The notes beneath the pieces were generated by a model. That model ran no database searches. It had not been told where the DNA came from and saw nothing but the letters and a program-made list of their open reading frames with translations. The position numbers were made by a program, and so were the translations under genes. Shown piece by piece: positions 28,244-53,323 of a DNA stretch of 64,000 nucleotides (its first letter is position 1; each line of letters opens with the position of its first letter). Source of the stretch: an uncultured virus (IMG/VR IMGVR_UViG_3300037195_000767) (lineage: Duplodnaviria; Heunggongvirae; Uroviricota; Caudoviricetes); the IMG/VR virus record IMGVR_UViG_3300037195_000767; one strand, written 5' to 3'.

Positions 28244-31200
28244 ATGCCTCAAAACAAACCAATAAACTATACTAAGTTATTAAAGGGAATTAGTAATCAA
28301 ACTGATGAAATTGATCCAAATACTAATTTAGATGGTGATAATAGTATAACTGATAAATCTATAACTACTATAGATCAACCTCCTACTAAATTACCTAAAA
28401 TAAATTACGAAAGTCTTCTTCAGGGTACTAAGAAAAAAGCTAGACAGAATCAATTGCTGAAACCTATAAAAGTAGAAGGTTTTAATTTTGATGATTATGA
28501 TTTAGTTCCTGAGATACGTATGCATCAAGGTATGGAAGTAGTTAATCGTATACGTGCTAATAATCAAAGATGGTATACTCAATTAGGTAATTTCTTAGGT
28601 CAGTTTGTTATTGGTGAGATAGTCGGTGGTGTAATTTCAGGTGTAGGAGCTATAGGAGAAATACCTGATATGATTAGAGATGGTTTTTCAGGTTCGGGTC
28701 ATGTGGATTTTAATAATTCTATAATACGTGCTGGTAATAATATTAGTGAGTGGGCTAGAGATGCTATGCCTATTTATGAAGTTAATCCAAATGAAAGTTG
28801 GCAAATGGATGATTTTGGATGGTGGATGGGTAATGGTGTATCTGTTGCTTCTACTTTATCTATGTTAATTCCTGCTGTAGGTACAGTTAAAGCTGCTGGT
28901 TATATAGCTAGGATTACTAAATTAGCAGATAAAGTGGGAGACGCTACTAAGTATTATAGTAAAATGGCTATTGGTGCTGGTACTATGAGACATGCTGAGA
29001 ATGTTCGTGAAAGTTTTCAAGTAGCTAATGATGCTAGGTTGTTATCAGCTCAACAATTTGAAGATCAAGTAAACTTTGATAATTTTATAGGATCTGAATC
29101 AGGTCAGGAGTTTTTAAAATCTTATGGAATAGAAGCAGATAATCCTGAAGCTAAAAGATTAGCTGGTGAGTTTATAGCTGCTAAAGCTGGGTGGAGATCT
29201 TATATGATAAACTCTACTAATATTGTATTTGATTTAGTACAATTCGCTCCTTTATTAAGAGGATTTAAAGTAAAAACTAGAAATAGTTTTGGTAAACATC
29301 ATAAATTAAAGAAAGCTGCAGCTAAAGTTACAGGACAAAAAACTCCTGGTAAGTTTAATTGGGCTATGAGTAAACTTAATCCTCTGGTTTCTGCTACAGG
29401 TAGACAATTAACTGAGGGTATCGAAGAAGGTATTAACTTTATAGGTGGTCAAGAAGGTGCTTATTTAGCTAATAATATATTAGGATTAGAAAGTTCTAAT
29501 TTTAGTGATAGATTTGGTGAATATATGCAGGATGGTGAATTATGGGAATCTGCATTTTGGGGAGTACTTGGAGGTATAACTTTTGAAGGAGCCTCTGGTA
29601 GAGTTGGTAGAATGTTAGGATCTAATAAAAACGGACCTCATAGTTTAACAGGTAAAATAACTGAAATAAACCAAAGAGCTGCTTTTATTAGTAATTCTGC
29701 TGCAAAACTTAATGCTATACAAAATGCTGATCCTAATTATAAGGATATAACTGGTGAGTATAATTTTAAAGATATAACAGAAGAAAGAAGACAAGAATTA
29801 ATTTCAGAACTACAAACTGATTTAGCTTATAATTTAGGTATTAATGCTGCTGTTGCTGGTAATGTAGATATATTATTAGACCAATTAAAGAATCCAGAAT
29901 TTCAACAACAATTAGTTGATATGGGATTAACTACTCAAGAAGAAGTTGATTCTTTTATTAATGAAGCAGAACAAAATATACTAACTGCAGAAGATACATA
30001 TAAAAAACATATGGGTAGTTTTGTAACATCATCTGCTTCTCAAACAGTAAAAAATTCTCTTATTTCTAAAGGTATAAATTTAGATTTACAAAAGAAAAAG
30101 ATAGAAAAAATAAGAGGTAAACTTGAAGAAACTAATACAGAGTTAAAATTAAATGATACTACTTATGGAAATATAGAAGGTAATGCAGAATTAGCATTAA
30201 GAAAAGCAGCCTTAAAACGTAGTTTAGCTTCTTTTACAATCGAAGCTGCTAGAGCTGATGGTATCCAATATAAAACAGAAGCAGATAAATTAGCAGCTAC
30301 TGAGAGATATAAAAATATTTTAAATAAGATACAAAATGAACTTAATGATATAGATACACAAGTAAATGAATCTGGAGAATCATTACCTTCTGTTAAAAAT
30401 GTAGATGAACGTATAATAGATAATGCAGCAGCTATTGAGGGATATAAAATAGCTGAATCTGCTATAGCTGAAGATGTAGCTAAGATTAAAACACAAGAAG
30501 CTGTTAAAAAAGAAGCTGATTTACAAAAGGAACAAGAAGAAATTTTTAAACAACAAGGAATAGATCTAGCTACTGAATCTACTTCAGATAAGTCTCTTAA
30601 AATAAGTGAAGATTCGTCTCAAGCAGATCTTTTAGGAGTAATTAAAAATACATTACTTCCTATAGAGAATAAGCTTAGAGAGGGAGGTCAGACAGAAGCT
30701 GCTGATATTGTAAAAAATAAAATAGATGAACTTACTGATAGATTAACGTCTGATGAATCACGTAGAGAAGTAAAAATAGCTAAAGAAAATGTTAAAGGAG
30801 ATAATCAAACTAGTCCTAAAGAAAGAACTCAGGAAGAATTATTAGAGGAAGTAAATAAAAAAGATATGCCTCCAACTAATAATGATACTAATAAAGATAA
30901 AATAAACCCTGATCCAAATGAAACAGATACTGAAATAAATCCAGATCAACCTACAAATACTTTTAATGTAAATCGAACAAGTCCATCTCCTCAATTTCCA
31001 GACGAGCCAGAAGTTGGTGAGACTGAATTTTGGAATGCTTTTACACAATTAAATTTATCTAATACTGAAGATACAACTGCTGATTCTGAAACAATTGAAA
31101 CTATTAATAGAATTATAAATTTAAATCCAGGTGATAAATTATCTATTATACGTAATGATGAAGGACTTGAAATTGTAGATAATAAAGGTAATCATATTGG

Positions 31201-34200
31201 ATGGGTAAATGAAATATCTTCTAAACAAAATTTATTAAAGAAAGCTCAAGCTAGACTTATAACAGCAAGGACTAAATCTGAAAAAGCTAAAGAGGCTTCT
31301 AAAATAAAAGGATATGAAACTGAAATAAAAACATTAAAAAGATTACAAACTTTAGCAAAAGGGTCTCAACAAGGAGATGTAATAGTAGAAACAGAGGTTA
31401 CTAGTAAACTTAGAGGTACAATTATTAATAATATGGTTAATAATGAAAAAGTTTTTAGATCTATAAGTGAATCATTTGGTAAACCTATAAATTTATTTAT
31501 GAACCAAAAAGATACTGTTAAGCAATTAGAAGTAATTTATGATGCTGATGGTAACGCTTCTGTATATGATGGATTTATGGGATCTGGTATTGTTCCTCCT
31601 AAATTTGGAGCTGGTGTGGTATATACTATTATTTTAGATAATAATGGACAACCTATGGCTGTTCCTATATCTACTGGAAAAGTAGATATAAAACATGCTG
31701 AATTTTTATTTGATGCTTTTGTAGAATTAGCTAACCGTTTAAATAAAAGAGTTGGTGGTAAATATGTAAATGATTTACGTAATAAAGAGATAAAAGATCT
31801 TAAAGATATTATTAATGAAATAACATATCAAGGTAAAAAAGGAGGCATAGTTATACATAATGAGAAGATAGAAATACCTATGACTGATGGTAATGTACTT
31901 CAATTATTTTTTAGAGATAAAGGAAAAGGTAGTTTAAAAGGAGCTCCTGTATCAGGAATATTTAATATGAGAGTAGTAACTAAAGACGAATCTACTGGTA
32001 AAGTAAAACAAGTATTATCTGATTTTAATGCTTTTGGGTCTAAATCATTTTCAGATATTACTGAATTTGCTATAAAACAATTACAAGGACTTAGAAGACA
32101 AGTAAATAAAAAACGACTTGGATCTAAAGATAAATACCAGTCTCCTTTACATACAGATTTAAAATCTCCTAATTATCAGAATACAGGAGAAGAGTTTGAT
32201 AGTTATTATGATTATCTTACTACTGAAAAAGATAAACAAGGTTTACCTGTATTACGTTCTGATATAGGAGCTATTAGAAATGAAAGTGGTGATATAATAA
32301 CTCATTTTACAAATCCTAGAATTAGAGTAGGTAATATTGTTGGCGAATCTGTAGCTCCAAAAACTAAAAAAGCACCTGTAACTCCTGAAGCTGATAGGAT
32401 AGCAGCCTTAGATAAAACTTTAGTAGGTAAAGACAGAGAGTTTGTAGATCTAATGAGAGAAAAGGGTAAGGATCAGAAGATGATTGATCAAAAAATAAAA
32501 TCTTCAGCTAGAAATACTTCAGCAGGAAATAAATTACTAACAAGATATAAAGCTGAAGATACATTACGAAACCCAGAAGGAAAAACATTACCTGAATTAG
32601 TTTCTGCATATAGTTTATTATTTACAGATAATTATATACCAGCAAGAACAATTAACGATCTTTTATTTGATGACCCTGATTTAAGAACTAGGAACTTAGG
32701 TAATACAACTTCTCGTTATCCAGCTCAACAAGCTATTCTTAACTATGAAGCATGGGCTAAACAAGAAGCACCAGCAGCTCCAGTTGAACAAGATATAAGT
32801 AATGATCAACCACCTGAAGTATCTGCTAAAGATATAATAGAAGGATTAAAACAAGGTTTAGGTAAACAATTTATTACTCCAGATGATGTTAGAAATTTTG
32901 ATTTATCTGATGATGCTTTTGATAAATTATCTAAAAATGATTTTAATGATATAGATGATTTTCTAGATAGATCGGTTACACAAAATGATGTAACTCAAGG
33001 GTATACACAAGAAGATATAGATGCAGCTGAAGCTTGGTGGAAAAAGAATTTACCTAATGTTCCTTTTCAGGTAGTTGAAGGTTTAATTACAGGAGGTGGA
33101 CGTACTGCTTTTGGTAGATTCCATAATTCTATGGTATCTTTATCTAATATAGCTAAAGAAGGTACAGCTTATCATGAAGGATTTCATGCTGTATTTAATT
33201 TATATTTAAATCCTGTACAGAAACAAAAAATACTAGCAGAAGCTGTAGAAAGATATGGTGAACCAACTAATGAGGAGATTGATAAGATTATTAGACAATA
33301 TACTACGTATGGATTAGCAGATGTAACTTTCGATGACAAGGGTAGAGCTGAGCCTACCTATGAACCAGAATTAGAATTAACAGATTTAACTTTTGATGAT
33401 CAGGGCAGGCCTGAACCTACTTATGGTATGAGTAGAGAAAGAGCTAGAGAAATAGCTCTTGAAGAAAAGATGGCTGATGACTTCATGAATTATGTAATGA
33501 CTGGAGTAGAAGATAAAACTTGGAGAGGTAGAATTAGATCATTCTTTAGAAACATGTATAAATACATGAAGAATTTATTAGGTATAGGATCTAATATAGA
33601 TAAGTTATTTTATGATATAAATAATGCAAAGTTTACTTATAAAGCTGATCAGAAAGCTATAGATCATGCTAGGAGTATAACTTTGAATAGAAATGTAGAG
33701 GGTGAGAATATACCTGATACAACTATGCCTTCAGAAGGATTTACAGATTCTGAAGAGATGGTATTACTTAATAAATTACCAGGATTATATTATATAGTAG
33801 GCCAAAAACTTAATAATAAATCTATAGCTGAGGCAAATAAAACAGGTCAATCTCCTGATCCTATTAGTGATGATGCTATAAAAGCTGGTATTATGTCTGT
33901 TTTAGTAAGAAGATTTAATTCTCCTAAAACTGATTCTGTACATAAGACAAATATAACAAGAGTTATACAAGCTTTAAATAATGATGACTCTGATATATGG
34001 AGTAAAACTAAACAAATAATAGCTAAAGATTTTCAAACTGGTACAACTTTAGATCCTGAATTAGATAATATAGAATTTGATGATATATCTGAGATTAAAA
34101 GAAATTGGGATGATGGGTCTACATTTAATATAAATCAAAAAACAAGAGCTACTGGAGAAGTTAGATCTATTGTGAGAATGTCTCAAGATATTCAAGATAT

Positions 34201-37200
34201 TATAATAGATCCTGATGGAGGTATAGAATACGTTACAAATAAAGATGATTTCTTAGGATTTCCTAATTTCTTAAACTTTGATTCTGTATATCCTTATTTA
34301 TCTAACCATTTAGCAGGTATACAAAATGCTCAAGAGTTACTTGATAGATTAGAAACGTTATCTAAATTTGATTTAAGTTTTATGAAAATATGGGAACAAA
34401 TAAATCCTAAACATTTAAATCCTAGACAACAACAATTAAGTACTACAGAAAAACAAGTATTACAAGAAAAGAAAAGTTTATTATTAGCTAAATTTTTTGT
34501 AACATTTGCTAAACAATCTGCTACTTTTGATGTAGACTTAGTTAGTATACGTGGACAATCTGTAATTCATAGACCTAGTAGATCTAATAATAATGATACT
34601 AAGGTTATATTAGCTAATAAATGGATTTCTGCTATAGTAGATAAACATGCTAATAAAGAGATAGATATAGCTGATGTAATCAATGGTTTAAAACCTATTT
34701 CTTTAGGTATACTTAATGCTAATAATTTAGATAATATAGGAAAAAGAAAATTAGCTGTATCTATATCAAATTTATATTCTAAATTAGGTATAAATCTTAT
34801 GGAGAAAGGTGTTAATAAAATGGCTGATGCTATATATGATACTATAAAAGATATGGGTAATCCTATTTATATGATTAAATATGGTAGTATATCAGGTATA
34901 GTAAATAATGTATTTGTTAAACCTTTATCTTGGGTAGTAGATAATTTAGCTGATAATAATGTTTCTTTTGATCAGACTGGGTCTTTAAGAGAATTAGCTA
35001 ATGCTATAAAATTCTTTAAATATGATCTTATACAAAATACAAGTGTAAATGTTGTAGGTAAAAAACAATATACAATAACTGATTCTAATTTTATGTCAGA
35101 TTTCTTTGCTAAATATAATTCTGAAGATGAGTTACAAAGATTAGAATTAATAGATTTTATAGGAGAATTATTAGATGTACCTGGAATGAAAGATTCTAAT
35201 TGGTTACAACAAATGATTAGGTATACTGAAGATGGTAAAGCTCCTTTAAGAAATGAGAATGGCGATATTATACTTAATGATGAGTTCTTTTCTTCATTTA
35301 ATTATTCTTATGAAGATGGTATTAAAAATACAGATAGTAATGTTGGTATTAAATATCATAATATGGAAGATTCGGATTGGTATTTTATGACTTTAGCTAA
35401 ATTTCTTAATGGTGGTAAAAAAGGGTGGTCTAAATATTCACAACCTATTCCTGCTGATAGTAGTAATATTATATTTATAACAGCTCCTACTTATAAAAGT
35501 TCATTTTTATTTAATAAAAATGATAAAGGTGAAGTAACTAATACTAATACTTTAAATGTAAATTCTCCTTTAGGTTTATCTTTATTTAATTTAGTAGCTC
35601 AAGAAGTTAAATCTATACATCAAGCTCAAAGATATTTATTTGAAACTGATGATTTTGGTAATGTTAAATTAGAAGATGGTATGCCTATTATAAAAGAAGG
35701 TTTAGATATGAGAACATTACAAAAAGATTATCATTATAAACAGGGACCTAATGGAGAAAAAATATTATTTGATAAACAAGGTTATCCTGTAGGTGAGGTA
35801 TTTAGATTTAATTCTTTTCCAGAATTAATTAATCTTAATGTATTACAATCACATAAAAGTCCTGATGGTAAAGGATTTATAAAAAGTCAATCTTTAGGTG
35901 ATAAAGCTATACAAAGTATACAAATTTCAATACAGCAAAATTTAGAGACTGAGATGATTAATTTATCTGGAAATCCTATGTTTATGAACCAAATAGATAA
36001 ATTATGGGCTTTAGCTAAAACTAGATATATAACAAAAGAACATTTTATTATGAGTTTCTTGGGTAACCAAAAGGTAGCTATAACAGAATCTCAGAATTGG
36101 TTTAGTGGTAATATATCTGAATATTCAAGTAAACAAGATAGTAGTAAAAGAGCTAAACAAACTAATTCACCAGGTAATAAACAAGCTGGTATCTTTACTA
36201 ATCCTATGTTTGGTTTAGTAGTTATTAAAGATCTTGTATTATCTTCACCAGATATAACACAGATTGCTAATACTTTAAAAGAATCTTTTCTAAAAAGAAA
36301 AAATTATACTAAGGTAGAATCTAAATTTGATATAGATAATATAATTAATGGTACTCCTAGGAGTAGTTTAGAAAAAGATGTTCATAAAGTAGCTAGACAT
36401 TATATGGCTATTAATACTGGTGATGCTCAAGGTTATGTAACTTGGGATAGATACAAGAGACAGCTTAAAGATAATGGAGCTTGGAATGATAGAGTAGCGT
36501 TTATAGCTAATAAAATAGATAACGATCAACGTATATCTCCAGATGAATTAAATGCTATAATGCAGCCTTTTAAAGGTTTTTATTATAACCGTAAGATAGA
36601 TAATAGTTTAGGTAAATTGAGATCTAGACAAATAAAATATTCTACTATACCTCTTATATCTCAATTAGTAAAGGGAACAGATCTTGAAATATTAGCTGAT
36701 AAAATGAATGTATTAGGTATGGATGAGGTTGTATTTGAATCTGCTTCTAAAGTGGGTACTTTAAGTGTACATAAAATACATGATGAAAATGGTCGTATAA
36801 TACCTGATATATTTGACCAATTAGTTGAAGATGATAGACTATCTATAGAATTACTAGATAATGATCATTGGTATAAACAACAAGATGTACCTACTAAATT
36901 AGATTCAGTTACCCAAAAATTAGGTACTCAGATTAAAGATATAGTACTTACTAATTTATCTAATAATCCTATATATAAGGTAGCTTTTAGTAATGCTGAT
37001 ATGGATGGTAAACAATTACTTAAAAAGTATGCTGAATTAACTTCTGCTAATATAATAGAATCTTCTAATGAATTATTAGAAGAACTTGGAGCTAAAGTAG
37101 ATAAAGATGGAAATATAGTATTTGAAAATAATAAACAACTAAGAAAAATATTATTAAGAGAACTTGTTAAACGTGGAGCTACTGATAATTATATAAAAGC

Positions 37201-40200
37201 TGTTTTACCTAAACCTGGTACAGATCAGTTTACCTTACCTTTAGCTTTTTCTGGTATGAATAATAGATTTGAATCTTTATTATTATCTTTATTTACTACT
37301 AATGTAACTGAACAGAAATTTCCAGGATTCTCTTCTGTACAATTTTCAGGAGCTTTCTTTAGAACAAATAAAAAAGTAAGTCAGTTAACACAAGAGTATC
37401 AAGAAGATAAAATGCAAGGAGTTGAATGGGTTAAAGGCCATGATACTAGCCGAAGATTAAGATCTACTAGAGATTCTGAATCAGGTATTATCACTGCTGA
37501 GGTAGTTGTTTCTAGGCCTAATGCATATCATTTTGAAGATGGTAAACCTATTCCTATAAATGAAATGGATCCTCAGTTATTAGAAATGTTAGGATATCGT
37601 ATACCTACGGAAGCTAAACATTCTATGGTTGTGTTTAAAATAGTAGGATTTACACCTAGAGCTACTGGAGATATAATTATATTACCTGATGATATTATAG
37701 CACAAACTGGATCTGACTTTGATATTGATAAGATGCAAGTTATGATGTATAGTGCTAATTATAAAGGAGAAAAAATAAAGTATGATAATTCTAAACCAGC
37801 TTCTAAAAATAATAGAAAACAAAGAAATAATGCTATCTTAGATATATTTACTAGTATATTAAAAAATAAGCATCATTTGGCAGAGACGTTAGAAACTGGT
37901 AACTTTGACGATCTTAAAGATATAAGAAAAGAAATGGATGAAATAGATGGTATTACTGAGGCTTCTTTAGATATATCTTCTTTTTCAGGTCAAGATGAGA
38001 TACGTAAAAGAAATATGTCTGGTAGAGTCTTAAAAGGTATATCTGCTAGTATTAATAAATTTGGTGCTATTGCTCAGAATACAAAAATGTCGTTAATGAA
38101 TGGTATCAAATTTAAATATAAACTTATTGAAGTAGATTCTTCTACAGGTACAATTATAAAAAGAGATATAAAACAGCTTATAAAAAGATATGGGGCTGCA
38201 AATGTAGAAAGAGATGGAGATTTTGTTATTATTAATCATAGGACTTTAGGATGGACAGAAGATGGTTCTAATCTTAATGTTAATGGGGATCTAGTTCTTA
38301 AGCATTCAGCTCAAGGTATTACTGGTGCTGTAGATATTGGTAAAGATCCTACATTTAACTCATTTAATGTTAAATCTTTTACATATCCATTAGTTGGAGC
38401 AGCTACTTTACTTGGTATACCTTGGAAAAATATAGCTTGGTTTACAAAACAAGATATTGTTAAGGCGGTTCAAGATAAATACTATGAATCTAGAGGAGCT
38501 TTTGGTGAGAATACTCCATTATTTGAAATAATTAGATCTCTTAAAGAGGAATATCTTCATGTAGATAGTGAGAAAAATAGCGCTAATCATGGTACATTAT
38601 TTGGATTATTACCAGAAGCTACAAGACGTAAATTAGCTTCTATGATGTTCAATGCTAAAAAAGGTAAAATACCATGGGTTGATTTTTATAATGCTAGAGA
38701 AAAAGCAATAGGTATTGAAGATTATAAACCTTATAGTAAAGAAGAATTAAAAGATATTTATATGGCTAGTAAAAGTCTAGACATTCTATCAGCTGCTGAT
38801 AAACGTCAATTTTATAAAGACCAACTTCAGATATTGAATAATTTTACTTATATGAGAAATATAGGTAATCAAGTTAATGAAGGGGTGAGATTAGTAAAAG
38901 TAGATACATTAGGAGCGGGTCCTAGTATGGTATCTACTAGGAATTTTGAAAGATTATTAGATAAAATGGTTGATGATGAAAATACTTTATTAGTTGAACA
39001 TGAAGATGGCCAAGAAGGTATAGCAGCTTTATCTATATATCCTTCTTATTTTGGTAAATCTGTTGAATCTGTATACCCAACACTAAATACTATGTATGAA
39101 TATTCTAATATGCGTAGTGTAAAAACTATAGGTCATCATTTCTTAGAAGAAAGTCCTAGATTTAGAGGTATTATAGATAGTATTATGACTCATTTAAAAG
39201 GTATTGGATTTATGTATAATGATAAAGTAGAATCTATAACACGTAATTATATAACTTCTTATTTATTAAAAGACGCTTCTTTATTTAGTGATATGGGAGA
39301 TCAAGATATTAGAGATATATTAGGTATAAGTCCTATTAATGATAGAGAAACTACTTCATTAGCTAGAGATATATTAGATATACAAAAAGATTATCCAGGA
39401 TTATCTCAAGCTCAAAATCATATATTAACTTTTTTAAATCCAAAAACTGGTATAGAGGAAATAGAAAAAAATGGTGGTTTAGAATTAATAGATATATTAG
39501 ATATACCTAATGATCCTATTATACAAAATCAGATAAGTAGATCTTTACTTAGAATGTATAGAGGAACATCTTTAAATGCTGATGGTACCTTATTACCTGA
39601 AGATGTGAGAGAGAGATTAAGAGATGTAGCAATTAAAATAGCTAAATATGAGTTTTTTGTTTCTGGTTATAATTTTGGATTTAATTCTTTAACAGAACTT
39701 ATACCTACTGAAATGAAAGTTGAATTAGGATTAGGAGAACATCTTGAGAAAAAAATACAAGAATTTAGTATGTTAAGAAGTGCTGATGGTGAAAATATTG
39801 GTAATCTTGTACATAAAACTATTAGATCTAACTGGAAAAGACATGTAATGGTTCCTTTAGTTAAAAGACAAGTTGAGATTAGAGAAATGAAAGGACAACC
39901 TACAAGAGTTACTAAAAAAGGTACAGGTAATTGGACTCCTGGTAGAGATGGTATTATTGTTACTTCTACTAATTTAAGTAACGAACCTATGTCAGTACAA
40001 AATAGTGAATATGTATATGTTCCAATATATGTTATAGATAAATATAAAACTGCAAAAACAGGTGAGAAAGTTTATAGATTAGCATCTGATAATTTATATA
40101 TGAAAGTAGGTACAGATAAACAATTAGGATTACAATATTATATACCTGTACCTAAATTAGGTATACCTGGAAAAATGATTGAATTTGGAGATCAATCTTT

Positions 40201-42046
40201 ATTAGAAACTAATATACCTATAGTTTATAAAAGAAGATATATTCCTTATAATAATGAATTAGAAGCTAGAGATTATGTTATTAATATTTTAAATGGAGAT
40301 ACAAATAGGGCTGAAGTTATAGAAAGTATAAAGAAAGAAGATGAAGCTAAAGCTGATTCTAAAAGAGGACTAACAACTGATGTTTTAGTAGAGATGTCAA
40401 AGAAACAAAGAACAGGAGGTATGCAAACAGTACCAAAAGTAGTTCCAGTAGCTCCAATAGTTACAAAAGAAGGCGTGTCAGAAGTATTTAAAAAGAATTC
40501 TGAATTGTCAGAGATAGGTACAGAAGAACAATATTCTGCTTATTTAGATACTGTGTTTCCTGAGAGCAAAGTAAAAGATATTGTTTATCATATCTCAAGA
40601 AAAAAATTCGAGAAGTTTGATAAAAAGTTTCAAACTGTTGGAATGGCCGATATTCATGATGTAAAATTAGGTAGTGGCTTTTATTTTGCAGATATAAAAG
40701 AGGTTAAGAAATATGCAGCCTCTGTATCATTGTTATTTCCAGGAGAGAAACAAGAAATTGTTGAAACTGATTTTGGTCCTACAAAACCATTACCAAAAGG
40801 AGTGTTATACTCATCTCTATTAAATATTAAAAATCCACAACAAAAAACTGATATTGATGTAAGAGATAGAATTCTTGATAAGGATCCTGGAGTAGATGGA
40901 TTTGAACTTACTGATAATATTAGAAAGTCTAAAGAGTATGTAGTATTTGAACCAGAACAAATCCACATATTAGGTTCTAAACAAGATGTAAAAGGATTTA
41001 AAGAATTTGTATCTAAACCAGCAGTTCCAGTAGCTCCAGAAGTTACAAAAGCTTTAAAGTCTGATGTTATTTTACCAATTGGAACTTCTGGTAGTGGTAA
41101 ATCTACATGGATTAAAAGTATAAATAAAGGTAATGATTTTGTTGTAATATCTCCTGATGAGATGAGAATTGAATTTACTGGAGATATTAATGATAAAAGT
41201 AAAGATAATGAAATATATAAGGCCGTAATAGAAAGAACTATTAAAGCTATTGAAGAGGGTAAAAGAGTAATTATTGATAGTACAAATCTTAGAAAAGATA
41301 GGAGGAAACCATTTATTAAAGCTGTTAAAAAAGCTTTACCAGATACAAATATTCAATATAAACTAATGCCTTTAGATCCCGAATTAGCAAAACAAAGAAT
41401 TAAAGAGGATATCGCAGCAGGTATTGAGAGAGCTAATGTGACTGATAGCACAATAGATAGACACGCTAAGACTTATAAAGAAATGTTAAAGGATGTTAAA
41501 TCTGAAGATATTTCTGAATTTATAGAAGCTCCAGTAACTCCAGTAGACGCTCAAATTAAAAAAGTAACTTTAAAAGAACTTAGGAAACTAGCTAAAAAAA
41601 CAGACGGTCTTTCAGAAAATACTGAGGATTATTTCTATATAGATGATACTTTTAATAAAAAAAATAATAAAGCAATTCAAGTTAAAAAAGGAAGATTTGT
41701 TTTTGACATGACCGTTGATCGAAAAGGGGTCATAGAACCTTGGAAGGTTTCAGACTTAAGAGAAGATAAAAGCCTTTATTATAAAGAAACTGTTGATGGT
41801 GCAGGAAGAATACAAAAAAGTTCACCAAACTTTCCAATAACAGAAGCTGAAAAAGTATTAACTGAAATACAAAATCTTGCAAAACCTATAATAGCTCTAG
41901 AAACTCCAGTAACTACAGTTGATATAAATTCTATTAATAATTCTGAAGCTAATATAATGGATAATCAAGAAATGGTAAAAATGTATAAAGAATACCAAGC
42001 TGCAAAAAATAGAACTGATAATAATAGTGAAAAGAAATGCGATTAA
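28244..42046 (+). CDS. giant virion-packaged DNA-dependent RNA polymerase polyprotein
   Basis: GSDFDIDK catalytic loop (DFDIDK at 37715-37732), GYRIPT, NTGDAQGY, FESASKVG; zincin HEGFH at 33173; C-terminal ART-like and P-loop kinase domains. Confidence 0.92.
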   Translation: MPQNKPINYTKLLKGISNQTDEIDPNTNLDGDNSITDKSITTIDQPPTKLPKINYESLLQGTKKKARQNQLLKPIKVEGFNFDDYDLVPEIRMHQGMEVVNRIRANNQRWYTQLGNFLGQFVIGEIVGGVISGVGAIGEIPDMIRDGFSGSGHVDFNNSIIRAGNNISEWARDAMPIYEVNPNESWQMDDFGWWMGNGVSVASTLSMLIPAVGTVKAAGYIARITKLADKVGDATKYYSKMAIGAGTMRHAENVRESFQVANDARLLSAQQFEDQVNFDNFIGSESGQEFLKSYGIEADNPEAKRLAGEFIAAKAGWRSYMINSTNIVFDLVQFAPLLRGFKVKTRNSFGKHHKLKKAAAKVTGQKTPGKFNWAMSKLNPLVSATGRQLTEGIEEGINFIGGQEGAYLANNILGLESSNFSDRFGEYMQDGELWESAFWGVLGGITFEGASGRVGRMLGSNKNGPHSLTGKITEINQRAAFISNSAAKLNAIQNADPNYKDITGEYNFKDITEERRQELISELQTDLAYNLGINAAVAGNVDILLDQLKNPEFQQQLVDMGLTTQEEVDSFINEAEQNILTAEDTYKKHMGSFVTSSASQTVKNSLISKGINLDLQKKKIEKIRGKLEETNTELKLNDTTYGNIEGNAELALRKAALKRSLASFTIEAARADGIQYKTEADKLAATERYKNILNKIQNELNDIDTQVNESGESLPSVKNVDERIIDNAAAIEGYKIAESAIAEDVAKIKTQEAVKKEADLQKEQEEIFKQQGIDLATESTSDKSLKISEDSSQADLLGVIKNTLLPIENKLREGGQTEAADIVKNKIDELTDRLTSDESRREVKIAKENVKGDNQTSPKERTQEELLEEVNKKDMPPTNNDTNKDKINPDPNETDTEINPDQPTNTFNVNRTSPSPQFPDEPEVGETEFWNAFTQLNLSNTEDTTADSETIETINRIINLNPGDKLSIIRNDEGLEIVDNKGNHIGWVNEISSKQNLLKKAQARLITARTKSEKAKEASKIKGYETEIKTLKRLQTLAKGSQQGDVIVETEVTSKLRGTIINNMVNNEKVFRSISESFGKPINLFMNQKDTVKQLEVIYDADGNASVYDGFMGSGIVPPKFGAGVVYTIILDNNGQPMAVPISTGKVDIKHAEFLFDAFVELANRLNKRVGGKYVNDLRNKEIKDLKDIINEITYQGKKGGIVIHNEKIEIPMTDGNVLQLFFRDKGKGSLKGAPVSGIFNMRVVTKDESTGKVKQVLSDFNAFGSKSFSDITEFAIKQLQGLRRQVNKKRLGSKDKYQSPLHTDLKSPNYQNTGEEFDSYYDYLTTEKDKQGLPVLRSDIGAIRNESGDIITHFTNPRIRVGNIVGESVAPKTKKAPVTPEADRIAALDKTLVGKDREFVDLMREKGKDQKMIDQKIKSSARNTSAGNKLLTRYKAEDTLRNPEGKTLPELVSAYSLLFTDNYIPARTINDLLFDDPDLRTRNLGNTTSRYPAQQAILNYEAWAKQEAPAAPVEQDISNDQPPEVSAKDIIEGLKQGLGKQFITPDDVRNFDLSDDAFDKLSKNDFNDIDDFLDRSVTQNDVTQGYTQEDIDAAEAWWKKNLPNVPFQVVEGLITGGGRTAFGRFHNSMVSLSNIAKEGTAYHEGFHAVFNLYLNPVQKQKILAEAVERYGEPTNEEIDKIIRQYTTYGLADVTFDDKGRAEPTYEPELELTDLTFDDQGRPEPTYGMSRERAREIALEEKMADDFMNYVMTGVEDKTWRGRIRSFFRNMYKYMKNLLGIGSNIDKLFYDINNAKFTYKADQKAIDHARSITLNRNVEGENIPDTTMPSEGFTDSEEMVLLNKLPGLYYIVGQKLNNKSIAEANKTGQSPDPISDDAIKAGIMSVLVRRFNSPKTDSVHKTNITRVIQALNNDDSDIWSKTKQIIAKDFQTGTTLDPELDNIEFDDISEIKRNWDDGSTFNINQKTRATGEVRSIVRMSQDIQDIIIDPDGGIEYVTNKDDFLGFPNFLNFDSVYPYLSNHLAGIQNAQELLDRLETLSKFDLSFMKIWEQINPKHLNPRQQQLSTTEKQVLQEKKSLLLAKFFVTFAKQSATFDVDLVSIRGQSVIHRPSRSNNNDTKVILANKWISAIVDKHANKEIDIADVINGLKPISLGILNANNLDNIGKRKLAVSISNLYSKLGINLMEKGVNKMADAIYDTIKDMGNPIYMIKYGSISGIVNNVFVKPLSWVVDNLADNNVSFDQTGSLRELANAIKFFKYDLIQNTSVNVVGKKQYTITDSNFMSDFFAKYNSEDELQRLELIDFIGELLDVPGMKDSNWLQQMIRYTEDGKAPLRNENGDIILNDEFFSSFNYSYEDGIKNTDSNVGIKYHNMEDSDWYFMTLAKFLNGGKKGWSKYSQPIPADSSNIIFITAPTYKSSFLFNKNDKGEVTNTNTLNVNSPLGLSLFNLVAQEVKSIHQAQRYLFETDDFGNVKLEDGMPIIKEGLDMRTLQKDYHYKQGPNGEKILFDKQGYPVGEVFRFNSFPELINLNVLQSHKSPDGKGFIKSQSLGDKAIQSIQISIQQNLETEMINLSGNPMFMNQIDKLWALAKTRYITKEHFIMSFLGNQKVAITESQNWFSGNISEYSSKQDSSKRAKQTNSPGNKQAGIFTNPMFGLVVIKDLVLSSPDITQIANTLKESFLKRKNYTKVESKFDIDNIINGTPRSSLEKDVHKVARHYMAINTGDAQGYVTWDRYKRQLKDNGAWNDRVAFIANKIDNDQRISPDELNAIMQPFKGFYYNRKIDNSLGKLRSRQIKYSTIPLISQLVKGTDLEILADKMNVLGMDEVVFESASKVGTLSVHKIHDENGRIIPDIFDQLVEDDRLSIELLDNDHWYKQQDVPTKLDSVTQKLGTQIKDIVLTNLSNNPIYKVAFSNADMDGKQLLKKYAELTSANIIESSNELLEELGAKVDKDGNIVFENNKQLRKILLRELVKRGATDNYIKAVLPKPGTDQFTLPLAFSGMNNRFESLLLSLFTTNVTEQKFPGFSSVQFSGAFFRTNKKVSQLTQEYQEDKMQGVEWVKGHDTSRRLRSTRDSESGIITAEVVVSRPNAYHFEDGKPIPINEMDPQLLEMLGYRIPTEAKHSMVVFKIVGFTPRATGDIIILPDDIIAQTGSDFDIDKMQVMMYSANYKGEKIKYDNSKPASKNNRKQRNNAILDIFTSILKNKHHLAETLETGNFDDLKDIRKEMDEIDGITEASLDISSFSGQDEIRKRNMSGRVLKGISASINKFGAIAQNTKMSLMNGIKFKYKLIEVDSSTGTIIKRDIKQLIKRYGAANVERDGDFVIINHRTLGWTEDGSNLNVNGDLVLKHSAQGITGAVDIGKDPTFNSFNVKSFTYPLVGAATLLGIPWKNIAWFTKQDIVKAVQDKYYESRGAFGENTPLFEIIRSLKEEYLHVDSEKNSANHGTLFGLLPEATRRKLASMMFNAKKGKIPWVDFYNAREKAIGIEDYKPYSKEELKDIYMASKSLDILSAADKRQFYKDQLQILNNFTYMRNIGNQVNEGVRLVKVDTLGAGPSMVSTRNFERLLDKMVDDENTLLVEHEDGQEGIAALSIYPSYFGKSVESVYPTLNTMYEYSNMRSVKTIGHHFLEESPRFRGIIDSIMTHLKGIGFMYNDKVESITRNYITSYLLKDASLFSDMGDQDIRDILGISPINDRETTSLARDILDIQKDYPGLSQAQNHILTFLNPKTGIEEIEKNGGLELIDILDIPNDPIIQNQISRSLLRMYRGTSLNADGTLLPEDVRERLRDVAIKIAKYEFFVSGYNFGFNSLTELIPTEMKVELGLGEHLEKKIQEFSMLRSADGENIGNLVHKTIRSNWKRHVMVPLVKRQVEIREMKGQPTRVTKKGTGNWTPGRDGIIVTSTNLSNEPMSVQNSEYVYVPIYVIDKYKTAKTGEKVYRLASDNLYMKVGTDKQLGLQYYIPVPKLGIPGKMIEFGDQSLLETNIPIVYKRRYIPYNNELEARDYVINILNGDTNRAEVIESIKKEDEAKADSKRGLTTDVLVEMSKKQRTGGMQTVPKVVPVAPIVTKEGVSEVFKKNSELSEIGTEEQYSAYLDTVFPESKVKDIVYHISRKKFEKFDKKFQTVGMADIHDVKLGSGFYFADIKEVKKYAASVSLLFPGEKQEIVETDFGPTKPLPKGVLYSSLLNIKNPQQKTDIDVRDRILDKDPGVDGFELTDNIRKSKEYVVFEPEQIHILGSKQDVKGFKEFVSKPAVPVAPEVTKALKSDVILPIGTSGSGKSTWIKSINKGNDFVVISPDEMRIEFTGDINDKSKDNEIYKAVIERTIKAIEEGKRVIIDSTNLRKDRRKPFIKAVKKALPDTNIQYKLMPLDPELAKQRIKEDIAAGIERANVTDSTIDRHAKTYKEMLKDVKSEDISEFIEAPVTPVDAQIKKVTLKELRKLAKKTDGLSENTEDYFYIDDTFNKKNNKAIQVKKGRFVFDMTVDRKGVIEPWKVSDLREDKSLYYKETVDGAGRIQKSSPNFPITEAEKVLTEIQNLAKPIIALETPVTTVDINSINNSEANIMDNQEMVKMYKEYQAAKNRTDNNSEKKCD
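33313..33424 (+). repeat. degenerate in-frame tandem duplication (63-bp period)
   Basis: LADVTFDDKGRAEPTY / LTDLTFDDQGRPEPTY. Confidence 0.85.
40441..41051 (+). repeat. 29-bp direct repeat pair flanking the ART-like module
   Basis: agttccagtagctcca(at/ga)agttacaaaag at 40441-40469 and 41023-41051, 27/29 identical. Confidence 0.9.
41523..41919 (+). repeat. 22-bp direct repeat pair flanking an unknown module
   Basis: tagaagctccagtaactccagt (41523) vs tagaaactccagtaactacagt (41898), 20/22 identical. Confidence 0.85.
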
Positions 42047-42049
42047 ATT

Positions 42050-45000
42050 ATGGCTTGTAGATTAACAATTAAAACAAAAGGTGGAAAGGAAAGTAAATTA
42101 TTTAATAATTTAAATGATAGATTTGGAGAGAATCAAGCAAAAGATTTATATTCTCTTTCTAATACAAATACTTTTAAAAATTGGATTAATAAAAATTCTC
42201 AATATAACTTCGATAGGAACGGTGAAGTAGAATTTAAAGCTGTATTAGATTTTAATCAGAATTATTATACAGAACCTGTTAAAGAAATAAGAGAAATAAG
42301 TAAAACAACACAAACTAAAATAGATTTACTTAAAGAATCATTTAAAAATGTAGGTGTTAATGTAAATGTTGTTGAAGATTATGATTTAGTAGGTAGAGCT
42401 AAATTAGAAGCAGCTACTGAAAATACAATACCTACTATTGTATTTAATCCTGATAAAGTATTTTCTGATACAATTATACATGAATTTGGTCATATATATA
42501 TAGATTTACTTGGGTATAACCATCCTTTAGTTCAGGCTGGTATAAAACAATTAAAAGATTCTCCTTTATGGATGGAAGTACAATCTAAATATCCTAATTT
42601 GTCTAATGAATCTTTAGGTAAAGAAGTTCTTGTTACAGCTATAGGTAATGAAGGATCTGTTTTATTCGAAAATCAAAATGCAGAAAATCTAAAAAAAGAA
42701 ACTAGACTTAAAAGAATATTAAATGCTATATTTTCTTCTATAGCTAAATTATTAGGAATAAAAGTTTATGTAGCTAGACAATTAGCTGCTGAAATGCTTA
42801 ATAAAAATATCCAAAATGAATTAACTGGAAAAATATCTAATTATGAACAATGGAGTAAAGATTTAGACGTCGCTGTTCCTAATGAAGAGGCTATTAAACA
42901 AACTGAATTAACTTTATATTTAAATAATAAAGTAACTAATTTATATAGACAAATACGTAAATATAAAAATATAGCTCCTGAATATTCTGATGAGTTAAAA
43001 GATTTAGTTAAGGATATACAGTTATCTGATACAGAAAATCAATTAGAAAAATTAAATGATCATATATCTAGATCTTTAGGAAAAATTATAAATTTACCAG
43101 ATGATCAAGGAAGTATGCAAAAAAGAGTTACAGGTATTGAAGGTCGGCTTATAAAAACGGAAGAAACGTTAAAAAAAATTGTAAAGTTAAATAATGCAAT
43201 TAAAAGTAAAATATTAAATGATACTAGATTATCAGATAAAGAAATACTTAATCTTAAAAATAGTAAAAAATCTTTGTTGATGTCATCTATACGTAATTTA
43301 TATCATATGAATGTTGAATTAGATTCTTTTAGAGATTTAGCAGATTTAAACGACAATGCAGATTATCCGTCTGAGATAAAAGACGCTATAATTAAATTAC
43401 AGGGTAATATAGGAAAGATAGAAACTCTTTATAGAAGAACTATAAGATCATCTAAACAAGCATTTTTATTAGAGTTACAAGAATATAGTTCTAATCAAAA
43501 AGTTATAGATGATGCTATGAAAATATTTGAAGATAACTTTGATGAATCAGGAGCTCAACGTTGGATGGATGCTTTAGCTGATACTAATCATTCTTTTATA
43601 GCTTTAGTAAGAAAAAGAGTATCTGAAGAACAAGATAGAGGTAGAAGAGATTCTCTTAAATTAAAAGCTGAATGGAAAGATAGGATATCTGATCTTAAAA
43701 AAAATGGAATATCTATAGATGTATTTTTTGAAGAAGTTGATGGATATAAGACAGGTAAATTTATACAAGAATATGATTATAGTTCTTTTTATACTTTAAG
43801 ATCCAAAGTTTTCGATGAAGCTAATAAATTAAAAATAAAAGCTGATTCTTTACCAAAAGGAGCTGCAAGATCTAAATTATTAAAAAAGGCTAAATCTATA
43901 ATTAGAGATTTTTATGTTAATAATATGGAACCAGTTGAAAATTGGGAAAAAATTGTTAAACTTAGAAGAGATAAATTATCAGATGAAAAATTTGAATCAT
44001 GGGTAGATAGTAATATATATAAAGATACGGCTGGTAATATATATCCTTCTGGAGAATTATTACAAATTAAAAAATCTAAATATAAAAATGCTAAATTTGA
44101 TGCTTTAATGGCAGATCCTAATAAAAAAGAATTTTACGATTATTATCAACGTCTTATAAATGATTTAACAGGTCATAGCAGAAATGAATTTCTAAAAAAA
44201 GGATTTATGCCTGCTGTTCCTATAGATCAAAGAACTTATTTTAAATCTCTTAAAGACTCTATAGGTTTTAAAACTAAACAAGAAGAGCAAGAAGAATTTG
44301 CTACTGATGAAGCTAAAGAAGTTTTAGTAGATGAAAAAGGTGATGTTATTAATTTTGTTCCTTTTTATTATATGTCTAAATTAAATCAAGTTAATAAAAA
44401 GAAGATAACTGATGATATGACAGAAGATGAAAAAAATGCTATAATATCAGAAAATAGAAATATAGATGCTGAAAATAGAAAAGCTCATTTAGATGCATTA
44501 GATTTTAATTTAGAACGTACTATGATTACATTTATAGATACTGCTATAAATCATAGATCTAAATCTGCTATGGAAGAACAAGTATTATTAGCTAGAGAAG
44601 TTTTGACTCATACTAGAATAAAAAAGAAATCTTTTAAAAATACTGTAGATAAAATAGCTAAACAAGATATGGGAGAAGATAAAGGTTTAGATTTTGATGC
44701 TTCTCAATCTAATATACTACAACATTTCGATGATTGGATTAAAATGGTATTTTATGAAGACTTTGCTGCTGATGAAGGCGCTTGGACAAAAGCTTCTAGA
44801 GTGTTACAAAACTGGGCATCTATAAGAGGTATTGGTTGGAATATGTTTTCTGGTATAAATAATAAAGTATATGGTATGTATCAGATGAATGTAGAAGCTG
44901 CTGGAGCTCAATTTTTTAATTATAAACATTATAGAAAAGCTTCTGGCGAATATTATTCTCATTTTCATGAATATTTAATGCAAGGTATTAATGCTAGTGT

Positions 45001-47619: not shown

Positions 47620-48738
47620 TTAATTTAATTCTATATCTTGTTCTAATTCTAATAACCATCCATCTGGAATACTAACCATTAATTCGTTATTATTTTTACA
47701 ATTGTTAGCAAAATAGTTTCTTATAACATCTATATCTTCTATATCATTAGATTGTTCTAAAATTTGTACAATACTCTCTGTTAAATCACTTATTTGATTA
47801 TTATAAGTTTTAATTTTAGATATTTCTTCTAAATCATCTATAACTTGTTTTAGATATACCTGACTATAAGAAGCATTACCACCTTCTAATACACCACTTA
47901 TACCATCTATTTTAGTTTTAAGAGAATTTTCTCTCTTAGTTTCTAATTTTGAAGATAAATTACTAAGTTTAGAAGGAGCTATTAATTCACAACATTTCAT
48001 TAATGATCCTATATCATCTAGATCATATACTAATTTTACAGCTTTAGTAAGATTTTTTAAATAAGAAGCTGTTCTATCAGACACTGAATCATATACTACT
48101 TTTATAAACTTATTTATACCTTTATCACTTACTTTAACATTATCTATCTCTTCTTTTGTAGGTATAGGTATATCTAAAACTATAGTATTATTTTTCCATA
48201 TTTTAGTAAAATTATCTGCACCTACTCTATCTACTTTAGATGTTAGTACAAATCTATCCCAGAAAGGATTTTCTAATTCATCAGTCGGGATGACATTACA
48301 GGATCCTGCAAATACTTGCCATTTACATTTCTTTATTTCATTACCGTAAAATAATGCTTTTTCTCTCATTACAGATAATAAAGTATTTCTTACTCCAGAT
48401 GTTCCTTTATCTACTTCGTTTATTAATACAAACTCTGCATCAGCTATAGGAGCATCTAAAGTATATTCTTTATTCTCAAGTAAATTTTTCATATTTACTC
48501 TACCTTTAATCTCAGAAGTTTTAGTACCTTCATCCAATTCTATAATAAAAGTTTTTTCTTTAACGTCTGCTTTGACATAATTATATTTAGCTGCTGCGAA
48601 ATCTATAAGTGATTGGGTCTTTCCTACACCAGGATCTCCTAATAATAATACAGGTAGTTTTGTAACTTCTCCTAATGCTAATACTTTAAATATTTCTTCT
48701 TTTCCTACTAATTTAGTTCTAATTTTTCTTGTTGTCAT
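47620..48738 (-). CDS. MoxR/RavA-family AAA+ ATPase
   Basis: LVGKEE, Walker A GDPGVGKT, atypical Walker B LINEVDK, NTLLSVMRE, DRF arginine finger. Confidence 0.85.
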   Translation of the reverse strand: MTTRKIRTKLVGKEEIFKVLALGEVTKLPVLLLGDPGVGKTQSLIDFAAAKYNYVKADVKEKTFIIELDEGTKTSEIKGRVNMKNLLENKEYTLDAPIADAEFVLINEVDKGTSGVRNTLLSVMREKALFYGNEIKKCKWQVFAGSCNVIPTDELENPFWDRFVLTSKVDRVGADNFTKIWKNNTIVLDIPIPTKEEIDNVKVSDKGINKFIKVVYDSVSDRTASYLKNLTKAVKLVYDLDDIGSLMKCCELIAPSKLSNLSSKLETKRENSLKTKIDGISGVLEGGNASYSQVYLKQVIDDLEEISKIKTYNNQISDLTESIVQILEQSNDIEDIDVIRNYFANNCKNNNELMVSIPDGWLLELEQDIELN

Positions 48739-49768
48739 TTTTTAATTCATTTAATGTTATTACTCCGTTATTATCTATTACTTCTTTTTTAATTTCCCAT
48801 TCACCAGTTTCTTGATGCCATTCTACCTCCTCTATTAATTCAGCAAATCCTTTTATCCTTTTTCCTGTAGATTTAGAAAATCCTCCGTTTAATCCTATTT
48901 CTAAATCTTCTTCACTTACTTCAAATACTAGTGGTTTGTTGTTACATGCAGTCTCTGCTACTATAAATTTAAAAGGTAATACTTCATAATCCTTGAGTTC
49001 ATTATTCTTTCTTGTTATCATTTTTCTAAATAGAGACTTAATATAATATTGATAAATAGCTGCTTGTCTATAATAAGCATATTTTATGTAACTATTTGGG
49101 AAACTATATACTGGTTTACCAGTTGTTTTTAAATCTACAGCTTGTATAGTTTTATCTTTATGATTTATAATTACTTTATCTAACATACCTCTTATAGTAT
49201 ATTCTTTTCCAGATTTAGTTTTCCAAGGCATTTCAAATTTTAATTGATTTTCTGTCTCCCTAAGATCATTATCTGCTTTAAAGTATTCTTCTGTTATTAC
49301 ACATTTTTGTAACATATTCACCATATTAATAGTTTGTGTCATCTCTTCTCTAGATAAAAGTGTTTTATCTTTATTTTCAAGAGTAAATTTAACATACTCT
49401 TGTATCTCAGGTACTTCAAACTTTTTAATTACTGACTCATATTTAATCTTAAATCCAGAAGCTACATAAGCTGCTTTTCTTTTTGTATCTTCGTCAATAT
49501 CATCTCTATTTATATTATGTAAGTAAATTTTAACAAACTCACCCATCATACCACCAGGAGATTCAACTGTACATAATACATATCTTTTGTCAAATTCTGT
49601 AGGTTCAGTTAATAAACAATCTACTGCAGAACCTTTTCTAAAATAACTAGTATCTTCATCTTTAGGATTCAATATATGTTCTCTATAAAATGAAGGACTA
49701 TAATCTAATAAGTTTAAAGAGGAATGACTTAACTTATGATCTTCTAACGTTTTTTTATATTCTTCCAT
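48719..49768 (-). CDS. PD-(D/E)XK exonuclease (RecE/ExoVIII-like)
   Basis: LSHSSL, GSAVDCLL, RGMLD, VDLKTT, YYRQAAIY. Confidence 0.85.
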   Translation of the reverse strand: MEEYKKTLEDHKLSHSSLNLLDYSPSFYREHILNPKDEDTSYFRKGSAVDCLLTEPTEFDKRYVLCTVESPGGMMGEFVKIYLHNINRDDIDEDTKRKAAYVASGFKIKYESVIKKFEVPEIQEYVKFTLENKDKTLLSREEMTQTINMVNMLQKCVITEEYFKADNDLRETENQLKFEMPWKTKSGKEYTIRGMLDKVIINHKDKTIQAVDLKTTGKPVYSFPNSYIKYAYYRQAAIYQYYIKSLFRKMITRKNNELKDYEVLPFKFIVAETACNNKPLVFEVSEEDLEIGLNGGFSKSTGKRIKGFAELIEEVEWHQETGEWEIKKEVIDNNGVITLNELKNDNKKN

Positions 49769-52642: not shown

Positions 52643-53323
52643 TTAATTATAATATTGATTAATACTCTTTATTGCTGTTTCTATATCATTTGGTATTTTA
52701 AAGTCAAACATACCTTTTGGACTCTTTGCTGTTGTAGTACCATCAGATTGTGTAATAAAGTTATAAACTCTTTCACCATCTGAATTAATAGATACATCAG
52801 TAAATAATACTACAGTAAACATACCTTCCATAGTTATAACATTATCTACTAACTTACCTACTGTTTTAAATTTAAGTTTTCTATTACCTGATAAATCTGT
52901 TGATTGTTCTGCATGACCTATCATTACAAATGTAATATCATCTCTCATATTTTTACCTGAGTGAGCTACTTCCCAAGCATGTAATCCAATCTCTGTAAAT
53001 TTATCAAATCCACGTTCATTAGCTCTACGCATGTATTCATTTGCCATAACATACTGAAAATCATCTACTACTACTGTTTTAATATTAGGCATATTTTCAT
53101 TAATATGCTTCATAGTTTGAACTATAGTACTAGATTGATCAGTTTCTATATAATTACCATCTGGTGTTTCTTTAGATAATTTTTTATAGTTACCTTTCCA
53201 TCCTCTGAAAGGCATAGGTTTCTGTCCAACATTAATTATAAATGTTGATTTAGGGTCTAGGTTTTCTAAACTTGTGGACTTCCCAGATCCACTTTCTCCA
53301 ATGATTAAAATTTCTTGTGCCAT
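52643..53323 (-). CDS. AAA_24-like P-loop ATPase (Sak4-like)
   Basis: IIGESGSGKSTS, VVDDFQY, KTVGKL, AKSPKGMF. Confidence 0.85.
   Translation of the reverse strand: MAQEILIIGESGSGKSTSLENLDPKSTFIINVGQKPMPFRGWKGNYKKLSKETPDGNYIETDQSSTIVQTMKHINENMPNIKTVVVDDFQYVMANEYMRRANERGFDKFTEIGLHAWEVAHSGKNMRDDITFVMIGHAEQSTDLSGNRKLKFKTVGKLVDNVITMEGMFTVVLFTDVSINSDGERVYNFITQSDGTTTAKSPKGMFDFKIPNDIETAIKSINQYYN

Follow-up and report, generated by a model that had tools for sequence, protein, structure and literature searches.

Polyvalent proteins are known for their wildly variable domain sets, and the route by which such domains are exchanged in frame is not yet described. According to the main text of Iyer et al. 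2017 (PMC5512222), these proteins presumably enter together with the DNA and undergo processing by an embedded metallopeptidase, and modules of N4-like virion RNA polymerases occur there fused to MPTase, ADP-ribosyltransferase (ART), lysozyme and PBECR domains. In the passages of a preprint that deal with gp66, the polymerase of phi14:2, this enzyme is translocated into the host along with the DNA; they also state that the polymerase and two neighbours form, in part of the crAss-like phages, a single and likely cleaved polyprotein, of which one part carries a zincin-like protease (10.1101/2020.03.07.982082). For the CdiA-CT cassettes, recombination between the motif-encoding sequences was proposed in the part of Poole et al. 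2011 that concerns them (PMC3150448). Here we analysed a stretch of 64,000 nucleotides (nt) from an uncultured marine virus of the Caudoviricetes (IMG/VR record IMGVR_UViG_3300037195_000767), hereafter the window, in which a giant open reading frame (ORF) encodes a crAss-like virion RNA polymerase polyprotein. We propose that the last 1.5 kb of this polymerase gene is probably a hypervariable in-frame payload array, which occupies a fixed site between the polymerase body and the tail and is built of linker-bounded cassettes. In the literature on crAss-like virion polymerases, polyvalent proteins and polyproteins, supplements excluded, we found no description of such an array.

The conserved polymerase body ends in ...GGMQT, just before linker 1, and the C-terminal 535 residues consist, in this order, of linker 1, module 1, linker 2, module 2, linker 3, module 3, linker 4 and a tail of 42 amino acids (aa). 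Relatives were collected with residues 3700-4600 as query, which gave 52 proteins, and with residues 3150-4062, which gave 5; they are cited below by handle where they differ from one another, together with contigs of the runs X4-X7. The features of the array are the following.

28244..42046, plus strand: giant ORF of 13.8 kb and 4600 aa, crAss-like virion RNA polymerase polyprotein with the C-terminal payload array.
40430..40468, plus strand: linker 1 (VPKVVPVAPIVTK), which carries the repeat copy 40441-40469 and is 18 nt shorter in the L039/P0002 type.
40466..41008, plus strand: module 1, an ART-PolyVal-like ADP-ribosyltransferase with a conserved leader (40466-40591), a variable core (40592-40951) and a conserved cap (from 40952).
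41009..41053, plus strand: linker 2 (VSKPAVPVAPEVTKA), which carries the repeat copy 41023-41051; an X5 contig joins other sequence at 41026.
41054..41518, plus strand: module 2, a P-loop kinase of the polynucleotide-kinase type, with the Walker A motif GTSGSGKST and D-x-x-R.
41519..41548, plus strand: linker 3 (FIEAPVTPVD), which carries the repeat copy 41523-41544 and is the divergence point of P0057 and of an X4 contig (41543).
41549..41893, plus strand: module 3, a small alpha/beta domain of no family, as judged by a structure model and family searches.
41894..41917, plus strand: linker 4 (ALETPVTT), which carries the repeat copy 41898-41919; all the variant joints have their right edge at 41919.
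41918..42046, plus strand: conserved C-terminal tail (VDINSINN...NNSEKKCD) with the stop codon, kept in P0002 (74%), P0053, P0068 and P0071.

The tails that follow the payload, in the window (41918-42043) and in P0053, P0061, P0063, P0064, P0057/P0066 and P0071, are short and Lys-rich, with Cys last or adjoining the last residue (endings ..KKCD, ..TKCD, ..KNCK, ..KKC, ..PRIC and ..KKCED), and tails of this kind may be a packaging or anchoring signal.

The content of the site varies among co-circulating marine relatives, as the initial annotation had anticipated: it was found empty, with an ART variant only, with ART and kinase followed by another tail, or with a cpYpsA-like set. The ART-variant-only type is represented by P0002, its cluster mates P0059 and P0060 and the JGI locus L039, and its body is 87% identical to that of the window at the aa level and 93% at the nt level. 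In this type the first 42 residues of module 1 are retained and are followed by a different, shorter ART core; the cap HILGS.QD...FK.FV is also retained, modules 2 and 3 are gone, and the sequence rejoins the window exactly at 41919, with 97.8% DNA identity thereafter. L039 is a 16.9-kb contig collinear with the window on both sides, and the same type was present also in ENA and in run X6. The comparison of L039 5694-9075 with window 41919-45300 gave the 97.8% DNA identity downstream of the array, against about 93% upstream; since identity rises in this way across it, the array lies at a mosaic boundary.

The empty site was found in an X4 contig, in which 40428 is joined to 41919 plus 2 extra letters, with a net in-frame loss of 1488 nt (hence the whole array), and in the protein fragment P0068, in which the body runs straight onto the tail (...KKQRTGGMQTIGINSINN...NNSEKKCD). 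An alternative tail was found in P0057, from a 99.7%-identical strain carrying ART and kinase. This protein equals P0001, save 6 substitutions, up to residue 4431 (..FIEAPV), and past it has 35 other residues ending in ..PRIC, the divergence beginning inside linker 3. In the fragment P0066 this alternative tail recurs, there preceded by module 3 and an APVAPIAPVA linker; it is therefore real and pairs with either module. Further from the window, the body of P0053 (54-58% identical) is followed by a weak cpYpsA match and other sequence before a like tail (...NDDNSETKCD), and P0055 has a NADAR domain. P0054 continues into a homologue of the next gene (ORF 42050-46171), which is thus fused onto the polymerase polyprotein. 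In the fragment P0067 a piece of the next gene (..KFFTDSAYAMQHIG) is joined directly to the polymerase body end and tail, which reflects either a chimera of the assembly or a genome that has been rearranged. The nearest genome, G001, offered only an identical fragment beginning inside the kinase module. INPHARED phages gave no DNA match to 39000-42100, and the protein search there gave unrelated phage Pnk genes only; no relative came up in IMG/VR when the body end, or the whole cassette, served as a single-protein query. In near-identical wild phages, one and the same site on a presumably ejected polymerase is thus variously empty, filled in part or filled with other domains, and these variants show that cassettes are exchanged among co-circulating phages.

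To locate break points we used the joints listed for contigs of the runs X4-X7, 4 of 21 runs, in which rare variants are dropped by the contigs. Stretches 97-99% identical in DNA to the array were found in other contexts in these runs. A 32.5-kb X4 contig matches 40952-41543 at 97%, covering ART cap, linker 2, kinase and linker 3, and departs from the window at 41543; in an X5 contig the stretch 41026-41529 is 98.8% identical, with other sequence joined at K|APVAPEV; in X6 and X7 contigs the match begins at 41061. The empty-site joint 40428->41919 lies at the outer boundary of linker 1 and of linker 4. Precisely, 7 of the 16 listed ends or joints inside 40428-41919 were within 12 nt of a linker, zones that account for 15.7% of the span (binomial p 0.007, an approximate value, the contig ends not being independent). 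The expectation that breakpoints fall at the repeats was thus borne out by P0057, the X4 (41543) and X5 (41026) contigs and the empty-site joint, but not by the ART-core swap, which lies inside the module.

The ART modules have a conserved leader (..GV.E.F..NPEL..IGT.EQY..YLDT..) and a conserved cap (..EPEQIHILGSKQDI.GFK.F) flanking a hypervariable core, and in L020, L024 and P0023 it is the kinase that is placed between ART leader and ART cap. At the DNA level these adaptors are better conserved than the enzymes beside them: between the window and L020 and L024 the ART cap is 90-91% identical and the kinase 72%, and between L021 and L024 the kinase reaches 86% and the ART leader 98%, the latter over 53 nt.

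The linkers are alike as DNA too. The initial annotation had described tandem unrelated domains separated by related DNA repeats, and we recovered the whole of this arrangement: the domains are ART-like, kinase and module 3, with the core motif at four linkers and the P-loop kinase between linkers 2 and 3. The 29-bp repeat around module 1 (40441-40469 against 41023-41051) is confirmed at 27/29 identical nt, or 29/32 from 40438/41020, with a spacing of 582 nt = 194 codons; likewise the 22-bp repeat around module 3 (41523-41544 against 41898-41919) at 20/22 identical nt, with a spacing of 375 nt = 125 codons. That all the spacings are multiples of 3 is true but is a trivial consequence of in-frame peptide repeats. 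The core CCAGTARCTMCA has 4 exact matches on the plus strand, one per linker, and another exact match on the minus strand at 27879; allowing at most 1 mismatch, 11 matches were found against 0.72 expected. The identity between repeat copies exceeds what peptide and codon bias would give: 29/32 was reached by none of 200 codon shuffles of 40301-42043 (maximum 26) and 20/22 by none of 100 (maximum 19). Of the three results that the initial annotation had named as speaking against it, namely an invariant domain set, breakpoints unrelated to the repeats and no excess of DNA identity, none was obtained. Moreover, linkers 1 and 2 use identical codons at 8/8 shared residues, minor codons included, with p ~0.007 on gene codon usage and ~0.004 on cassette usage, both obtained by hand arithmetic on codon counts. 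All 9 proline codons of the linkers are CCA; the cassette region has CCA, CCT and CCC in the ratio 19:7:1 and the body 107 CCT and 36 CCA among 143 (Fisher p 2e-5), a difference in proline usage by which the cassette region has its own codon signature.

We also compared kinase flanks at 26 IMG/VR loci and the window, after dropping 3 duplicates and 9 partial or weak loci from 38. At 7 of the 27 loci the kinase lay between direct repeats of the DNA that were in frame and matched at 18/24 nt or better; controls at shifted positions gave 23 of 744, and those across loci 28 of 702. These repeats vary by lineage, examples being a TQPSTSV-type and NSQSS.PVSTEAT. Flanking repeats around the kinase thus appear frequent yet no general rule, and the signal is weak at the peptide level.

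As regards the carrier protein, its identity as a virion RNA polymerase rests on residues 2383-3179, which match chain residues 656-1394 of 6VR4_A (phi14:2 gp66) with E 2.2e-34, and on the DFDID present in the translation of the giant ORF, which fits the DFDxD metal-binding motif of gp66-type polymerases. The host of phi14:2 is Cellulophaga baltica, one of the marine Bacteroidota. The genes around the giant ORF are virion genes, among them a structural protein (phrog_15100, E 2e-158) and a baseplate-hub-like protein. In the giant ORF Pfam gave no peptidase family at E <= 1, although an HEGFH motif is present; we consider this region a candidate protease because the passages of the preprint on gp65 orthologs assign a zincin-like protease to them (10.1101/2020.03.07.982082). 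The other features to which we refer are these.

35390..37780, plus strand: RNA polymerase core, residues 2383-3179, matching phi14:2 gp66.
33173..33187, plus strand: HEGFH (HExxH) zincin-type motif, residues 1644-1648, of a candidate processing protease.
32366..32803, plus strand: second, internal variable segment, residues ~1375-1520, between KKAPVTPEAD and QEAPAAPVEQD linkers.
52646..53323, minus strand: Sak4-like single-strand annealing protein (phrog_2872, E 2.1e-62), a candidate recombination function whose link to the array is conjectural.
48722..49768, minus strand: exonuclease VIII-like gene (phrog_412, E 8e-25), a candidate recombination function likewise linked to the array by conjecture.

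The window also encodes an SbcD-like exonuclease. The internal segment 32366-32803 is about 40% alike in P0002, which is 87% identical otherwise, and P0053 has a short unrelated stretch instead. A small variable patch of the body lies at 38967-39023 (residues ~3575-3593; compared with L039 3543-3683), where L039/P0002 have ~28 additional residues. The L039 homologue of window ORF 42050-46171 has an HExxH motif of its own (..IIHEFGHIY..).

Judged from its sequence, the array belongs with the polyvalent proteins, as a series of payload modules bounded by linkers. Its modules would travel as linker-bounded cassettes through recombination between co-infecting phages, and the short linker homology, together with the conserved ART leader and cap, would steer some of the exchanges in frame. 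By analogy with phi14:2 gp66, the payload would be packaged in the particle and would enter the host with the polymerase, and the polyprotein's own zincin-type protease may then free it. That linker DNA guides exchange is supported by the divergence points inside linkers, the identity at codon level and the conserved adaptors; homology between the linkers is a plausible driver of the exchange, perhaps via the Sak4-like protein. The candidate exchange signals may be, on the one hand, lineage-specific linkers (Pro/Val here, TQPSTSV-type elsewhere) and, on the other, the widely conserved ART leader and cap acting as a socket. We only infer that the Sak4-like and exonuclease genes take part in the exchange. 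The fuller proposal, that the junctions are maintained DNA-level exchange signals for in-frame swapping of virion-delivered enzymes at a dedicated polymerase site via the phage annealing and exonuclease genes, is a tentative one, to which we give rather low confidence.

Several results weigh against exchange through the linkers. The right junction of the P0002/L039 type (..FKNFVSGSKII|DINS..) is without a Pro/Val linker and is not a simple linker-by-linker event; linkers hence come and go with cassettes there. The replacement of the ART core, in L039 and an X4 contig, breaks at 40588/40591 and 40952, inside module 1, and 9 of the 16 listed ends, including both ends of this swap, are away from linkers. 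Linkers 1 and 2 have no exact run of more than 16 nt in common, little for homologous recombination, and selection alone would also leave break points at domain borders. Repeats at the peptide level (5/8 identical residues) flank 9 of 96 non-redundant kinase contexts against 56 of 1141 cross controls (p 0.09). The precise 582-bp and 375-bp deletions that the initial annotation had proposed to look for did not occur among the joints listed for contigs of 4 runs, which is no evidence of absence. The proposal that the linkers are recombination joints is supported as far as the variable content and the junctions in linkers are concerned, but its mechanism is only plausible, given the linker-less P0002 junction and the breaks inside a module.

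The initial annotation had also proposed to search phage metagenomes with the 29-mer. The 15-mer GTTCCAGTAGCTCCA, common to linkers 1 and 2, was searched in IMG/VR on both strands and gave at least 119 matches; at 80 loci of these there was no module homologue within 900 nt, a further point against the linkers as joints. We therefore rejected the GTTCCAGTAGCTCCA linker as a widely shared joint, considering its IMG/VR matches as due to chance.

The best surviving alternative is that the linkers matter as peptide, being flexible Pro-rich spacers or sites for the zincin-type protease; recombination would then occur anywhere, selection would keep the in-frame joints at borders, and the DNA likeness would be left from duplication or from cassette travel. 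We hold this to be possible, though with limited confidence. It agrees with the HExxH motif in the giant ORF, the preprint calling such polyproteins likely cleaved in the passages concerned (10.1101/2020.03.07.982082), and with the processing of polyvalent proteins by MPTase proposed in the main text of Iyer et al. 2017 (PMC5512222). AP..P linkers accompany module 3 in P0061, P0062 and P0109, two more surround the internal variable segment, and the P0002/L039 junction bears no linker scar. Nevertheless, the 8/8 identical codons of linkers 1 and 2, minor ones included (p ~0.007), go beyond the need of selection on a peptide, P0057 and the X4 and X5 contigs diverge within linker DNA, and the adaptor DNA is more conserved than the adjoining enzyme cores. 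The linkers may be spacers or protease sites and also bound the cassettes of a payload array, the two readings being compatible.

We consider it highly improbable that the variants are metagenome assembly chimeras formed at short repeats. P0067 does appear chimeric, and the variant proteins come from short contigs; against this, separate sources repeat the variants, namely the P0002 type (ENA, JGI L039, X6), the empty site (P0068, X4) and the alternative tail (P0057, P0066), and the repeats are shorter than usual assembly words. The chance of a fixed architecture with fortuitous or low-complexity matches in an AT-rich gene is practically negligible: Pro/Val linkers are of low complexity and the 15-mer GTTCCAGTAGCTCCA is common by chance in IMG/VR, but no codon shuffle (0/200 and 0/100) reached the observed identities, the core motif is found 11 times against 0.72 expected and relatives differ in domain content.

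Returning to the payload array and to what it carries, module 1 alone matched ART-PolyVal (PF18760) with E 7.9e-7 and 30.4 bits, 0.8 bit short of the gathering cut-off of 31.2 bits. Homologues of it are present in 25 of the 51 other giant proteins, several with precomputed PF18760. In an alignment of 21 modules, VYH, GFYF and EYVVFEPEQ of module 1 fall on conserved His, aromatic and Glu columns, positions that we take to be the ART catalytic triad. In the ART core of the P0002/L039 type, Arg replaces the conserved His (VYRG against VYH. in the other 20 aligned modules); as far as the aligned residues indicate, this ART represents a distinct catalytic variant that occupies the same socket. The role of the ART is likely the modification of host targets.

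Module 2 is of the polynucleotide-kinase type, its P-loop kinase assignment being upheld by AAA_33 (E 7e-18) and the PHROG polynucleotide kinase phrog_505 (E 6e-17). A profile of ten kinase modules matched CthPnkp (E 4.1e-10), Pnkp1 (E 7.8e-10) and T4 Pnk (E 2.2e-6), and GTSGSGKST and SPDEMR, invariant among the aligned kinase modules, stand opposite GSSGSGKST and SSDFCR of 4JST. Pfam and PHROG scans revealed no 3'-phosphatase or ligase domain in the 4600-aa protein, hence this is a kinase-only module. At 58-81% identity it occurs in 36 of the 51 other giant proteins, in N-terminal, middle or C-terminal position, only 1 of the 51 having the polymerase body in common with the window; a search of shorter proteins with it gave 468 matches. 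ART and kinase often adjoin, in either order. In the giant proteins P0029, P0038, P0134, P0185 and P0187 the kinase module is interrupted by an insertion of ~90-150 residues, which looks like a nested insertion inside a cassette. The kinase would likely phosphorylate 5'-OH nucleic-acid ends, for example in the repair of RNA cut by host defence.

For module 3 no Pfam or PHROG family was found and the ESM Atlas gave no usable match; its relatives were just 11 among 1.84 billion representatives. It was modelled with moderate confidence (pLDDT 74, pTM 0.66) as one helix, a sheet of five strands and a long helix at the C-terminus, a fold with no Foldseek match in the PDB at E <= 0.001 and a top VIA-align Z of 5.9, under the usual background of 7-8. 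At 84-89% identity it lies between (E)AP..P linkers in P0061, P0062 and P0109, and in the fragment P0066 it is followed by one such linker; P0063 is a stand-alone ORF of module 3.

If the linkers are real exchange joints, they would explain a fast turnover of injected counter-defence enzymes. The array would also provide a discovery rule for new payload domains, module 3 included, namely anything between the body and the ...KKCD tail, and would suggest a natural docking site for cargo in crAss-like particles, of use in laboratory phage-host systems.

Compared with known systems, the array resembles the polyvalent proteins as the main text of PMC5512222 presents them: one giant polypeptide with unrelated effector domains (ART, kinases, peptidase, virion polymerase), encoded among virion genes. 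Unlike the N4-like RNA polymerase of that text, the polymerase here is the unrelated crAss-type two-barrel enzyme. Moreover, that main text contains neither 'crAss' nor 'linker' and describes no fixed site, no empty/filled polymorphism and no DNA repeats at the borders. With phi14:2 gp66, as presented in the preprint passages on it (10.1101/2020.03.07.982082), the window protein shares DFDID and the 6VR4 match, and its fusion to a zincin motif is as in the three-protein polyproteins; gp66, however, has 2180 residues, and those passages mention no ART, kinase or other C-terminal payload. T4 Alt is a packaged ART delivered with the phage DNA, according to the main text of PMC5512222, whereas the ART of the window is fused to the polymerase and is not a free protein. 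T4 Pnk and Clostridium thermocellum Pnkp share Walker A and D-x-x-R with the window kinase, which is polymerase-fused and has no phosphatase or ligase partner.

The CdiA-CT/Rhs-CT toxins (VENN, PxxxxDPxGL), as described in the relevant part of PMC3150448, have like the array a short conserved motif at which near-identical strains diverge; in the array this place is taken by ...GGMQT | array | (V/I)DINSINN, plus the divergence inside linker 3. CdiA/Rhs are, in the same part of that work, secreted toxins of bacteria, downstream of which lie immunity genes and orphan cassettes, whereas the array consists of serial modules of a phage virion protein that ends in a conserved tail. Where CdiA/Rhs would have an immunity gene, the next ORF (42050-46171) encodes a conserved giant virion-type protein. 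The likeness is best read as an analogy of design, not as homology. Should the junctions be maintained signals, the array may correspond, in phages, to the VENN-type exchange by which polymorphic toxins of bacteria swap cassettes, and may point to a general rule for building polyvalent proteins.

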